From the NCBI RefSeq assembly GCF_988242995.1, contig NZ_OZ547043.1: 64,000 nt of DNA; one strand, written 5' to 3'. Below the pieces are notes generated by a model. The model ran no database searches and had not been told where the DNA came from. It saw only the letters and a list, made by a program, of their open reading frames with translations. Shown in pieces: positions 44,504-46,362 of this stretch (position 1 is its first letter; every line of letters starts with the position of its first letter). The translations under genes and the position numbers were made by a program.

Positions 44504-44656
44504 TTTGTAGGGTACGACAAGGTTTATGGCGGATGCGCACAAACGCCTTATCCGGTCCGCGATTTGGTACGGCTTTTTGCCGGATGCGGCGTAAACGCCT
44601 TATCCGGCCTACGGTTTGGTGCGAGTGTAGGCCGGATAAGTGCAGCGCATCCGGCA
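44504..44656. repeat. BIME (about three REP copies in alternating orientation) between hpaX and hpaI
   Basis: Repeated CGGATGCGCACAAACGCCTTATCCGG, GCCGGATGCGGCGTAAACGCCTTATCCGGCCTAC and inverted GTAGGCCGGATAAGTGCAGCGCATCCGGC. Confidence 0.7.
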
Positions 44657-45445
44657 TTAATACACGCCGGGCTTAACGGTCGTGGCCTGTGCGCCAAACC
44701 GTGCTGCCAGCGCTTCAGCGGCGCGGGCGAGCAGGGTGGTGTCAACGCCGACGGCGACAAACAGCGCGCCCAGTTCCAGATAGCGTTTTGCCAGTTGCTC
44801 ATTGGCGATCAGGATCCCCGGCGCTTTGCCCGCTTCGCGGATCTGCACGATCGCCTGCTCAATCGCGGCCTGTACTTCCGGGTGCTGTGGATTACCGGCA
44901 TAACCCATATCGGCGCTCAGATCCGCCGGGCCGATAAACACGCCGTCGACCCCTTCCACGTCCAGAATCTGCGGTAAGTTCTTCATTGCCTCACGCGTTT
45001 CGATCTGCACCAGCACGCACATTTGATCGTTGGCTTTTTGCAGGTAATCAGGAATACGATTCCAGCGCGAGGCTCGGGCCAGCGCACTGCCCACACCGCG
45101 AATACCGGCGGGGGGATAACGGGTGGCGCGTACCGCTTCACGGGCTTCGTCAGCGTTTTGTACCATCGGCACCAGCAAGGTTTGTGTGCCGACGTCCAGC
45201 AGTTGTTTGATTTGCACCGGATCGTTCCACGACGGACGTACCACCGGCTGGCTGGGGTAGGGCGCAATCGCCTGTAGCTGGGTGAGCACGGTTTGCACGT
45301 TATTCGGCGCGTGCTCACCGTCGATCAATAACCAGTCGAATCCTGCTCCGGCCAGTAACTCTGCGCTGTAGCTGCTACTCAGCCCCAGCCATAATCCGAT
45401 CTGCGGGCGGCCTGCTTTCAGCGCCGCTTTAAAACTGTTTTCCAT
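44657..45445 (-). CDS. hpaI: 2,4-dihydroxyhept-2-ene-1,7-dioate aldolase HpaI
   Basis: Start at internal ATG 45445 (AAGGAGAG Shine-Dalgarno) gives 262 aa ([21 protein letters not shown]...); HpcH/HpaI aldolase family; this removes the apparent overlap with hpaH. Confidence 0.85.
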
Positions 45446-45455
45446 CGTTCTCTCC

Positions 45456-46259
45456 TTAAACAAAGCGGCAGCTAATGGAGCCCATGTTGCCGTAATCGAC
45501 GTGGAAGGTGTCGCCCTTACGCGCCGGAACCGGGCGGGTGAACGAACCGCCGAGAATGATTTGCCCGGCTTCCAGTTGTACGTCATACGGTGCGAGTTTG
45601 TTCGCCAGCCAGGCCACGCCGTTTGCCGGATGATTCAGCACACCAGCGGCGACGCCGGTTTCTTCAATCACGCCATTGCGATACATCAGGGCGGAGATCC
45701 AACGTAGATCCAACTCATCGGGCTTAATGGGACGACCACCGAGGATCACCCCGGCATTGGCGGCGTTATCAGAAATGGTGTCGAACACTTTACGCGGGCG
45801 CTGGGTTTCCGGATCGATGTTGTGGCAGCGAGCGTCGATCAGCTCCAGCGCCGGGATCACATAGTCCGTGGCGTTGTAGACGTCGAACAGCGTGCAGTTT
45901 GGCCCACGCAGCGGTTTTGCCAGCACGAAAGCCAGCTCCACTTCAATGCGCGGCACGATAAAGCGATCGGTCGGGATATCGCTGCCATCGTGGAAGAACA
46001 TGTCATCCAGCAGGGCACCGTAATCCGGCTCGCTGATTTGTGAGCTGGCCTGCATCGCTTTCGAGGTCAGGCCGATTTTGTGGCCTTTCAGCGTGCGACC
46101 TTCGGCGATTTTCAGTCGAACCCATTCACGCTGCACCGCGTAAGCGTCTTCGATGGTGATCTCCGGGTAATCCAGCGAGATCGCGCGGATCTGTTCGCGC
46201 TGTTTTTCTGCCTGATCCAGACGCTGGGCGATCAGGGTGTGGGTGTGTTTATCGAACAT
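45456..46259 (-). CDS. hpaH: 2-oxo-hept-3-ene-1,7-dioate hydratase HpaH
   Basis: Start at internal ATG 46259 gives 267 aa ([20 protein letters not shown]...); hydratase/decarboxylase family. Confidence 0.85.
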
Positions 46260-46278
46260 AGCGATATCCTGTGGCATT

Positions 46279-46362
46279 GCCGGATGCGGCTGCGCCTTAT
46301 CCGGCCTACGGTGTACGGTTTGGGGTTTTGTAGGCCCGGTAAGCGCAGCGCCACCGGGCAAT
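46279..46362. repeat. REP pair between hpaH and hpaF
   Basis: GCCGGATGCGGCTGCGCCTTATCCGGCCTAC followed by GTAGGCCCGGTAAGCGCAGCGCCACCGGGCAAT. Confidence 0.65.

Follow-up and report, generated by a model that had tools for sequence, protein, structure and literature searches.

The minus strand of the window, that is, of the whole 64,000-nucleotide stretch of DNA that was analysed, carries every gene of hpa, the cluster for breaking down 4-hydroxyphenylacetate (4-HPA), and hpaF, hpaH, hpaI and hpaX were each assigned by an NCBIfam equivalog model. In the run from hpaG to hpaA, the hpaG/hpaE, hpaE/hpaD, hpaD/hpaF, hpaH/hpaI and hpaX/hpaA junctions overlap or are spaced by 9-10 nt, and the only spacers longer than about 10 nt are those of hpaI/hpaX (J1) and hpaF/hpaH (J2). 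The first-pass annotation had placed clusters of REP/BIME palindromes between these two co-directional gene pairs, and both clusters were recovered:

43106-44482, minus strand: hpaX, with its ATG at 44482
44483-44656, 174 nt: hpaI/hpaX gap (J1), with three REPs (a, b and c)
44483-44526, minus strand: hpaX leader and ribosome-binding site, GTACCCTACAAAAATCCCATTAGAGGAAG; not REP
44527-44559, minus strand: REP a, a degenerate copy of REP b in direct repeat
44577-44612, minus strand: REP b, canonical y-type; mRNA-strand sequence GTAGGCCGGATAAGGCGTTTACGCCGCATCCGGCA
44627-44656, minus strand: REP c, an inverted REP (iREP) on the mRNA, UGCCGGAUGCGCUGCACUUAUCCGGCCUAC
44657-45445, minus strand: hpaI
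45456-46259, minus strand: hpaH
46260-46369, 110 nt: hpaF/hpaH gap (J2), with two REPs (d and e)
46277-46309, minus strand: REP d, canonical REP; mRNA sequence GTAGGCCGGATAAGGCGCAGCCGCATCCGGCAA
46310-46329, minus strand: linker between REP e and REP d, C-rich and G-poor; AAAACCCCAAACCGUACACC on the mRNA
46330-46361, minus strand: REP e, an iREP on the mRNA, UUGCCCGGUGGCGCUGCGCUUACCGGGCCUAC
46370-46750, minus strand: hpaF

The region originally marked, 44504 to 46362, takes in both clusters and the intervening hpaI and hpaH, except that its first 23 bases belong to the conserved hpaX leader. This leader is kept across genera regardless of the number of REPs upstream of it, in every hpaI/hpaX gap examined (43-418 nt). 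The clusters had also been described as sitting at internal junctions of the operon, a description that fits hpaF/hpaH only, because the meta-cleavage operon of the literature is hpaGEDFHI, with hpaX listed apart. The hpaI/hpaX gap is the 3' end of hpaGEDFHI, which is the usual place for a REP. A REP between tandem genes is nothing unusual either, since 146 of the 355 annotated REP loci of K-12 are so placed.

Both gaps have the same order on the mRNA: the stop codon is followed by an iREP, a C-rich linker and one or two forward REPs, and the next gene's ribosome-binding site comes last. In J1, REP c adjoins the hpaI stop codon (TAA, 44657-44659) at a distance of 0-1 nt and is paired with REP b through a perfect inverted repeat of 14 nt; the two are arranged tail to tail, as BIME partners are, with a 14-nt spacer between their 14-nt cores. 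REP a repeats REP b directly (78% identity, 52-nt spacing) instead of alternating with it, and is part of a 51-52-nt tandem unit that is absent from some strains. In J2, the stem of REP e begins about 10 nt past the hpaF stop codon (TAG, 46370-46372), and REP d, which shares exact 20-nt and 14-nt matches with REP b, ends 10 nt from the hpaH Shine-Dalgarno sequence AGGA. REPs e and d also form a tail-to-tail BIME pair, with a 20-nt spacer. The 18-nt core of their linker contains 8 C and 1 G, a composition that makes it a candidate Rho-loading stretch, and similar linkers of the CAGCACCAAACC type recur in the REP arrays of other genera. Elsewhere in the window, a BIME at 12902-13005 has a long A/T-rich linker, unlike the linkers at hpa.

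Several lines of evidence identify these elements as true REPs. With up to 2 mismatches allowed, the window has 9 occurrences of the 14-mer core CTTATCCGGCCTAC, about 40-fold more than the expected 0.22, and four of the nine occurrences fall in the two hpa gaps; REPs b, c and d have no mismatch to it and REP e has two. The units follow the enterobacterial consensus (GCCGGATGCG...CTTATCCGGCCTAC) and their hairpins carry internal stem mismatches, REP a being degenerate. REPs are imperfect palindromes of about 35-40 nt, and all five units found here are extragenic, each lying between an hpa stop codon and the next ribosome-binding site. The b/c pair is dispersed, with a median of 26 places per genome among the matches listed, of which up to 40 per genome were counted, in 5425 of the 5426 complete E. 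coli genomes. REP e is the exception: its CCCGGT/ACCGGG variant rarely occurs in E. coli genomes (at a median of 1 place in each), and orthologous copies are found in Pseudocitrobacter, Citrobacter, Raoultella, Trabulsiella and Lelliottia. The REP-derived Rfam model naRNA4 matched REP b with 42.2 bits (E = 1.4e-5), which is under its gathering score, and REP d with 26.8 bits. On the mRNA strand, REP b is identical at 31 of 32 positions to the crystallised y-REP. The element recognised by RAYT is the conserved GTAG tetranucleotide at the hairpin's 5' foot (PMC3479197). REPs b, c, d and e all have it, within GTAGGCC; in REP a, GTAG is changed to GCGG (GCGGACC versus GTAGGCC). Chance palindromes were rejected because the elements are dispersed genome-wide and the motif is enriched.

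The likeness to the BIME/REPIN-RAYT systems (Gilson et al. 1991; Messing et al. 2012, PMC3479197) includes imperfect palindromes of 30-36 nt, a 5' GTAG foot in four of the five units, and the inverted pairs c/b and e/d with their short linkers. J1 differs from them in the direct tandem duplication of REPs a and b, which makes it an atypical BIME; the missing GTAG of REP a and the rarity of the REP e variant are further differences. These five elements are of the ordinary REP/BIME type, the commonest small palindromic repeat of E. coli. Full-text literature searches returned nothing relevant on REPs at hpa. The cluster's REPs were probably mentioned already by Prieto and colleagues in 1996 and by Diaz and colleagues in 2001.

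Single REP hairpins were predicted to fold with -11 to -21 kcal/mol (REP a, -11.1; REP b, -20.9; REP c, -12.1; REP d, -17.6; REP e, -18.4). The RNA of the whole J1 gap folds with -72.6 kcal/mol (z = -4.8), while that of J2 is not strikingly stable compared with shuffles (z = -1.9). REP c (0-1 nt) and the stem of REP e (about 10 nt) lie within 15 nt of a stop codon. According to Liang et al. 2015, as summarised in PMC12306157, REPs at most 15 nt past the stop codon lower translation and are reported to stall terminating ribosomes; the same summary gives 260 of 496 REPs in that position in Liang et al. 2015 and, for the larger set of RepRanger, 446 of 4,072. Such a position is thus common to a large part of the E. 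coli REPs, and that of REPs c and e is not distinctive. A conserved hairpin near the hpaF stop codon was also considered as evidence and dropped, since shuffled sequences pass too often: a hairpin starting within 15 nt of the stop was found in 40 of 40 loci at -8 kcal/mol compared with 83% of shuffles, and in 80% compared with 50% at -15 kcal/mol.

Promoter and terminator scans of positions 43900-46900 found neither a sigma-70 promoter nor an intrinsic terminator on the minus strand in either gap. Intrinsic termination by the REPs was rejected, the terminator scan being empty and no U-tract following the REPs on the mRNA strand.

To compare strains, as the first-pass annotation had proposed, the complete E. 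coli genomes were searched for hpa; about 2071 of them, or about 38%, are hpa-positive. REP content differs among these at both junctions, so that the identical content which the first-pass annotation had named as refuting its reading does not hold. At hpaF/hpaH, the two-REP allele, which has REP e, is present in 987 of the approximately 2071 genomes, so that the one-REP and two-REP alleles each stand near 50%. At hpaI/hpaX, three REPs are present in about 80-85% of genomes and two in the remainder, according to the presence or absence of the 51-nt REP unit; in BL21, the loss of one such unit of 51-52 nt leaves a 123-nt gap. The suggestion that the REPs are hotspots of rearrangement also gained support, as they coincide with rearrangement points: the 51-nt unit at J1, the end of a divergent hpaF haplotype block (about 460 nt, about 20% diverged) in the 3' arm of REP d, and, in one genome, the end of a deletion of about 46 kb in the GTAGGCC tail of REP e. 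The REP difference at hpaF/hpaH is linked to the diverged hpaF block and thus goes beyond simple gain or loss of a unit. Work by Bachellier and colleagues, in Genetics in 1997, reportedly found that the presence and copy number of BIMEs differ among natural E. coli isolates at orthologous intergenic sites. Both hpa gaps show the same kind of polymorphism, and the tie to the haplotype block sets hpaF/hpaH apart.

Variation is wider among species. Across 44 Enterobacteriaceae loci, the hpaD/hpaF gap measures 8-12 nt and the hpaH/hpaI gap 9-15 nt, as against 8-970 nt for the hpaF/hpaH gap. A structured insert is found at hpaF/hpaH in 40 of the 44 loci, and four species have a tight gap of 8-11 nt. 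REP-type elements occupy the site in 21 of the 44 loci (including Escherichia, Citrobacter, Raoultella, Salmonella and Lelliottia), with none to about 13 full copies across species, and a second palindromic family (CCCTCTCCC/GGGAGAGGG) does so in 14 (Enterobacter, Leclercia, Kluyvera and some Klebsiella); other GC-rich sequences also occur there. An Rfam scan of the second family, which may be 'boxC-like', gave only sub-threshold and meaningless matches to microRNA-like hairpins. The 970-nt gap belongs to Citrobacter sp. NCU1 and holds an array of 12 x 76 nt, and in Enterobacter genomosp. O duplications at the site carry the 3' end of hpaF along. At hpaI/hpaX, 0-8 REPs precede the conserved hpaX leader, and an iREP directly follows the hpaI stop codon in most of the other genera examined with REPs there (e.g. 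Pseudocitrobacter, Citrobacter and Klebsiella). REP number thus varies between strains and species far more than the rest of the hpa cluster.

REP hairpins of the malEFG type are expected to shield the mRNA upstream of them and thereby to favour expression of the upstream gene over the downstream one. REPs at the malE-malF and hisJ-hisQ junctions were reportedly described by Higgins and colleagues in 1982 and by Newbury and colleagues in 1987. As in these catabolic or transport operons, the genes on either side of the hpa hairpins run in the same direction, and the hairpins occupy the spacer that is the 3' untranslated region of the upstream gene, where they may play a similar role. The hpa gaps differ in that each stop codon is followed first by an iREP and then by REPs of the same orientation, and in that copy number is polymorphic within the species. 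A second comparison is REP325 in yjdM-yjdN, a partly Rho-dependent attenuator and upstream stabiliser (Harris et al., bioRxiv 10.64898/2026.03.23.713779); the same authors propose that REP variation between strains tunes expression. REP325 also lies inside a tandem gene unit, but consists of 12 alternating Z2/Y units, against 2 and 3 units at the hpa gaps, and the downstream genes hpaH and hpaI are indispensable for the same pathway as the upstream ones. REPs c and e fit the distance class of the nrdAB-type near-stop REP (Liang, Rudd and Deutscher 2015, as summarised in PMC12306157), and a corresponding effect at hpa is possible by analogy. In K-12, expression of the upstream relative to the downstream gene is on average higher in tandem gene pairs that contain a REP. 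According to published work, REP effects depend strongly on context and are sometimes missing altogether. The literature searched yielded no E. coli expression dataset covering all hpa genes.

Taken together, these features identify ordinary REPs in the two longer spacers of the hpa cluster, which we think probably stabilise the upstream mRNA and partly attenuate read-through, a role that can reasonably be inferred from REPs studied elsewhere. The seed elements are old, with an iREP after the hpaF stop codon and another after the hpaI stop codon in several genera, and the arrays would grow and shrink through recombination between direct copies. By analogy with malEFG, yjdMN (REP325) and nrdAB, the hairpins may block 3'-to-5' exonucleases, so that the hpaGEDF and hpaGEDFHI parts of the transcript would decay more slowly. 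Read-through into hpaHI and hpaX(A) may be attenuated in part as well, probably via Rho. At J2 such attenuation would have to be partial, because the pathway requires hpaH and hpaI, and the scan predicted no promoter in the hpaF/hpaH gap. As REPs c and e start less than 15 nt from a stop codon, they may slightly reduce the translation of hpaI and hpaF. Since anything between none and about 13 full copies is tolerated, the effect is probably a modest one, tunable and not essential.

The same copy range (none to about 13 at hpaF/hpaH, 0-8 at hpaI/hpaX) would also be expected if the REPs were neutral passengers, selfish or hitch-hiking, which settle in spacers free of translational coupling, drift in number by slippage and unequal crossing-over and have no meaningful effect on hpa. 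The near 50/50 alleles in E. coli, the four tight gaps and the 970-nt array fit weak or no selection on copy number. Two repeat families and other GC-rich sequences at one site, the hpaF ends dragged along in Enterobacter genomosp. O and published reporter tests in which a REP sometimes had no effect point the same way. Against neutral passengers stand the retention of a structured insert at hpaF/hpaH in 40 of 44 loci and the biased average ratio in the K-12 pairs, and a transcribed spacer with hairpins of -18 to -21 kcal/mol is unlikely to leave RNA decay wholly unaffected; we regard full neutrality as possible, though rather doubtful. That the REPs act mainly as DNA, by binding gyrase, IHF, HU or DNA polymerase I or by marking a topological boundary or the limit of a domain, appears highly improbable. 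A role of this kind is proposed for BIMEs in general, and the units are double-strand palindromes capable of forming cruciforms; however, the hpa linkers measure 12-18 nt with no A/T-rich IHF-type linker seen, and a recent study of REP325 saw neither a role in organising the chromosome nor contacts between REPs.

The two gaps may also have to be read separately. If hpaX(A) had its own promoter, the hpaI/hpaX cluster would mark the 3' boundary of the meta operon, as a decay barrier and partial terminator, and only the hpaF/hpaH pair would have a role within the operon. This is a real possibility, in line with the hpaGEDFHI operon of the literature and its separate hpaX. In the 1996 work of Prieto and colleagues, hpaX reportedly seemed to be cotranscribed with hpaA, which also counts for a boundary. 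Against it stand the lack of a sigma-70-like promoter on the minus strand in the hpaI/hpaX gap and the length of the whole gap in several genera, 43-47 nt, which leaves no room for a promoter and an activator site outside hpaI. Moreover, in an hpaR mutant of Yersinia pseudotuberculosis, hpaX, hpaB and hpaC are derepressed along with the meta genes, as would fit read-through. A further reading, in which hpaF/hpaH would be a selected 'structured-RNA slot' filled convergently by unrelated palindromic families, with copy number (none to about 13) as an evolvable rheostat setting HpaG, E, D and F against HpaH and I, seems unlikely to us.

Taken alone, the REPs at hpa are a routine case of the commonest E. 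coli repeat at its usual site. Their modest value is that of a natural experiment, in which one or two REPs occupy an operon-internal spacer in roughly equal halves of hpa-positive E. coli, and related species have anything from no repeat to a 970-nt array at hpaF/hpaH, beside neighbouring junctions that stay at 9-10 nt. With these natural alleles and this range among species, the hpa locus would be convenient for testing REP number as an expression tuner within operons; that REP number tunes upstream against downstream expression is a recently revived idea. In addition, the REPs mark recombination and deletion breakpoints in a catabolic island carried by about 38% of E. coli genomes.

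The window is 100% identical to E. coli chromosomes. Its hpa genes, whose identities were assigned by NCBIfam equivalog models, form a run in which two gaps carry REPs (iREP, inverted REP as read on the mRNA).

Genes, gaps and REPs of the hpa run, in the direction of transcription
49076-50371, minus strand, hpaG
47613-49079, minus strand, hpaE
46760-47611, minus strand, hpaD
46370-46750, minus strand, hpaF
46260-46369, hpaF/hpaH gap (J2), 110 nt
46330-46361, REP e in J2, iREP on the mRNA
46277-46309, REP d in J2
45456-46259, minus strand, hpaH
44657-45445, minus strand, hpaI
44483-44656, hpaI/hpaX gap (J1), 174 nt
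44627-44656, REP c in J1, iREP on the mRNA
44577-44612, REP b in J1
44527-44559, REP a in J1, degenerate
43106-44482, minus strand, hpaX
42206-43096, minus strand, hpaA
40393-41955, minus strand, hpaB
39863-40375, minus strand, hpaC

From hpaG to hpaA, the genes overlap or are separated by 9-10 nt, except at J1 and J2. The first-pass annotation had placed REPs at internal junctions of the meta-cleavage operon. In the literature this operon is hpaGEDFHI, with hpaX given apart from it, so that J2 alone is operon-internal while J1 is the operon 3' end. On the minus strand of the two gaps, neither sigma-70-like promoters nor intrinsic terminators were predicted. In a Yersinia pseudotuberculosis hpaR mutant, hpaX, hpaB and hpaC are derepressed along with the meta genes, as would fit possible read-through from hpaI into hpaX. 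The hpaI/hpaX gap of several genera is just 43-47 nt and consists of the conserved hpaX leader and nothing else, which leaves little space for a separate hpaX promoter. This leader of about 40 nt (GTACCCTACAAAAATCCCATTAGAGGAA, 44483-44526, minus strand) is kept in Escherichia, Klebsiella, Salmonella, Kluyvera and Enterobacter, independently of the number of REPs upstream.

On the J1 mRNA, iREP c comes after the hpaI TAA and is separated from REP b by a C-rich linker of 12 nt; a further linker of 17 nt leads to the degenerate REP a, beyond which lies the 44-nt hpaX leader with its ribosome-binding site. On the J2 mRNA, about 10 nt separate the hpaF TAG from iREP e; a C-rich linker of about 18-20 nt then leads to REP d, which ends 10 nt ahead of the AGGA Shine-Dalgarno of hpaH. 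The three REPs of J1 and the two of J2 confirm the clusters that had been noticed in these gaps, on the basis of motif, dispersal, Rfam and y-REP matches. The window contains 9 occurrences of the REP core CTTATCCGGCCTAC with at most 2 mismatches, where 0.22 would be expected, and 4 of them are inside J1 and J2; REP occurrence in the two gaps exceeds chance. Among 5426 complete E. coli genomes, the b/c region was matched in 5425, at a median of 26 places per genome. The Rfam naRNA4 model, built from REP325, matched REP b with 42.2 bits (E = 1.4e-5) and REP d with 26.8 bits; both fall short of the gathering score, which is what single units would be expected to do. REP b, which has the 5' GTAG foot, agrees at 31 of 32 positions with the y-REP that was co-crystallised with the REP-associated transposase (Messing et al. 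2012, PMC3479197). The CCCGGT/ACCGGG variant that REP e represents has a median of just one place in E. coli genomes; Citrobacter, Raoultella, Trabulsiella and Lelliottia carry the matching REP type at the corresponding site. All testable defining features of REPs were present in the hpa elements, as was the inverted pair of BIMEs, and their identity as REPs is near certain. J1 is atypical as a BIME, since REPs a and b are a direct duplication. Elsewhere in the window, three further REP loci (at 12902-13005, 36063-36093 and 56648-56690) each lie between convergent genes; the one at 12902-13005, an inverted REP pair with a 35-nt A/T-rich linker, looks like the BIME-1 (IHF-site) type.

Of 5426 complete E. 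coli genomes, about 2071 have the hpa cluster. The window-type two-REP J2 spacer was found in 987 of these; in the remaining ones, such as BL21 and strains 2015C-4498, 22AR0118 and MLI114, the spacer measures 64-67 nt and REP d is its sole REP. In strain 2015C-4498 (L002 2768-3147, coordinates of its own hpa locus), the annotation gives hpaF as a frameshifted pseudogene, the rest of the cluster being intact. J1 has three REPs in about 80-85% of the hpa-positive genomes and two REPs in 117-123 nt in the others, BL21 having lost one 51-nt unit. The one- versus two-REP difference at J2 is more than a simple gain or loss of a unit. Between the window and BL21-type strains, hpaF is 80-82% identical at the nucleotide level, compared with 96-100% for hpaD and hpaH. 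The divergent block extends from about 46300, within the REP d 3' arm, to 46759 in the hpaD/hpaF spacer, with sharp edges on both sides, and contains this 3' arm, REP e, the whole hpaF and the hpaD/hpaF spacer. The distance between the two E. coli hpaF haplotypes (about 80% nucleotide and 85% amino-acid identity) is as large as that to other genera, suggesting introgression or a long-maintained dimorphism. A divergent Escherichia representative retaining REP e and REP d has an hpaF 96.6% identical to the BL21 type, and Pseudocitrobacter hpaF shares 93% identity with the window type.

One complete genome, that of strain 47-1826 (NZ_CP184839.1), carries a deletion of about 46 kb in which the region downstream of iraD (window ~428) is fused to the GTAGGCC tail of REP e (46332; junction at L004 2995-3010) through a 5-nt AGGCC microhomology. 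Lost are hpaH, hpaI, hpaX, hpaA, hpaB and hpaC, all the way to iraD. Together with the block edge inside REP d, this deletion and the strain alleles bear out the expected strain differences in REP content and rearrangement at REPs.

The HpaH query, run against one genome per species, gave 80 loci, of which 44 Enterobacteriaceae-type loci were analysed. In these, hpaD and hpaF are 8-12 nt apart (median 9) and hpaH and hpaI 9-15 nt (median 10); for the hpaF/hpaH gap the range is 8-970 nt (median 112). REP-type elements occupy the hpaF/hpaH gap in 21 loci, usually as an iREP directly behind the hpaF stop and then between 1 and about 12 forward REPs; 2 of the 21 also carry a second palindromic family (CCCTCTCCC...GGGAGAGGGTTAGGGTGAGGGG). 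This family alone is found in 14 loci, other, mostly GC-rich sequence in 5, and a tight gap of 8-11 nt in 4. The second family, which is GC-rich, has no Rfam family, may be boxC-like, and is dispersed in E. coli (median 11 places per genome). It fills the E. coli REP site in L013, L018, L031, L032, L035, L036, L037, L045-L047 and L050. The extreme case is Citrobacter sp. NCU1, where 12 tandem 76-nt units, each of one full and one half REP, form a 970-nt array within the meta operon, between hpaF and hpaH (L034 2031-3000); its hpaI/hpaX gap holds a 334-nt array of 6.7 50-nt units (L034 4650-4983). Across species, the hpaI/hpaX gap has 0-8 REPs, in every case upstream of the conserved hpaX leader. 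The hpaF/hpaH gap is 10-19 nt in Serratia; in Hafnia, Xenorhabdus and Photorhabdus, 1.5-2.7 kb separates the two genes and, in the loci examined, codes for an aldehyde-dehydrogenase paralogue. This variation indicates that both spacers are soft spots, where old seeds persist and arrays expand and contract. In Enterobacter genomosp. O (L047 2639-3000), each hpaF/hpaH repeat unit includes the last ~20 nt of hpaF and its stop (GTGCATGCGTTGTTTAAGTAA), so that the array grew by unequal crossing-over across the gene end. The hpa cluster of Pseudocitrobacter spp. (L007, L009, L010) has 92-96% nucleotide identity to the window, and HpaH of P. vendiensis 100% amino-acid identity; REPs e and d are arranged as in the window, with additional REP copies, P. 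faecalis having only a REP e remnant. This likeness points to a recent exchange of the cluster between Escherichia and Pseudocitrobacter.

Stabilization of upstream mRNA and attenuation of read-through, which had been proposed for these elements, is the standard mechanism for REPs. REPs were first described from intercistronic sites (Higgins et al. 1982), and 146 of 355 annotated K-12 REP loci lie between tandem genes. By analogy with studied REPs, the hpa hairpins would obstruct 3'-to-5' exonucleases and partly attenuate read-through; REP325 of yjdMN does both, partly via Rho (Harris et al., bioRxiv 10.64898/2026.03.23.713779). The single hairpins are predicted at -11 to -21 kcal/mol, and the RNA folds at -72.6 kcal/mol for J1 (z = -4.8) and -50.8 kcal/mol for J2 (z = -1.9). 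As read on the mRNA, the linkers are rich in C and poor in G (J2: 8 C, 1 G), which would be compatible with Rho loading. REPs c and e also belong to the class at most 15 nt from the stop, reported to reduce upstream-gene translation (Liang et al. 2015, as cited in PMC12306157).

In K-12, the median log upstream/downstream ratio is 0.96 for tandem pairs containing REPs and -0.09 for controls. Four points argue for a modest rather than a strong effect at hpa: HpaH and HpaI are required in the same pathway with no internal promoter predicted, alleles with one and with two REPs are about equally common (near 50/50), the hpaF/hpaH site tolerates anything from zero repeats to a 970-nt array, and REP effects are context-dependent. 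The main rival takes the hpa REPs as purely neutral passengers; we consider this less likely. That these elements are REPs with a modest, tunable effect on expression is, by analogy, the reading we hold to be probable, and the first-pass interpretation is partly supported overall.

Strain-level BIME polymorphism was reportedly described by Bachellier et al. in 1997, and Prieto et al. (1996), in the original report of the hpa sequence, may already mention the hpa REPs. New, at a descriptive level, are the allele frequencies of REP content at the hpa gaps, the link between the J2 REP difference and a diverged hpaF haplotype and the observation, made at the hpaF/hpaH spacer, that a single gap inside an operon holds different repeat families in different genera.
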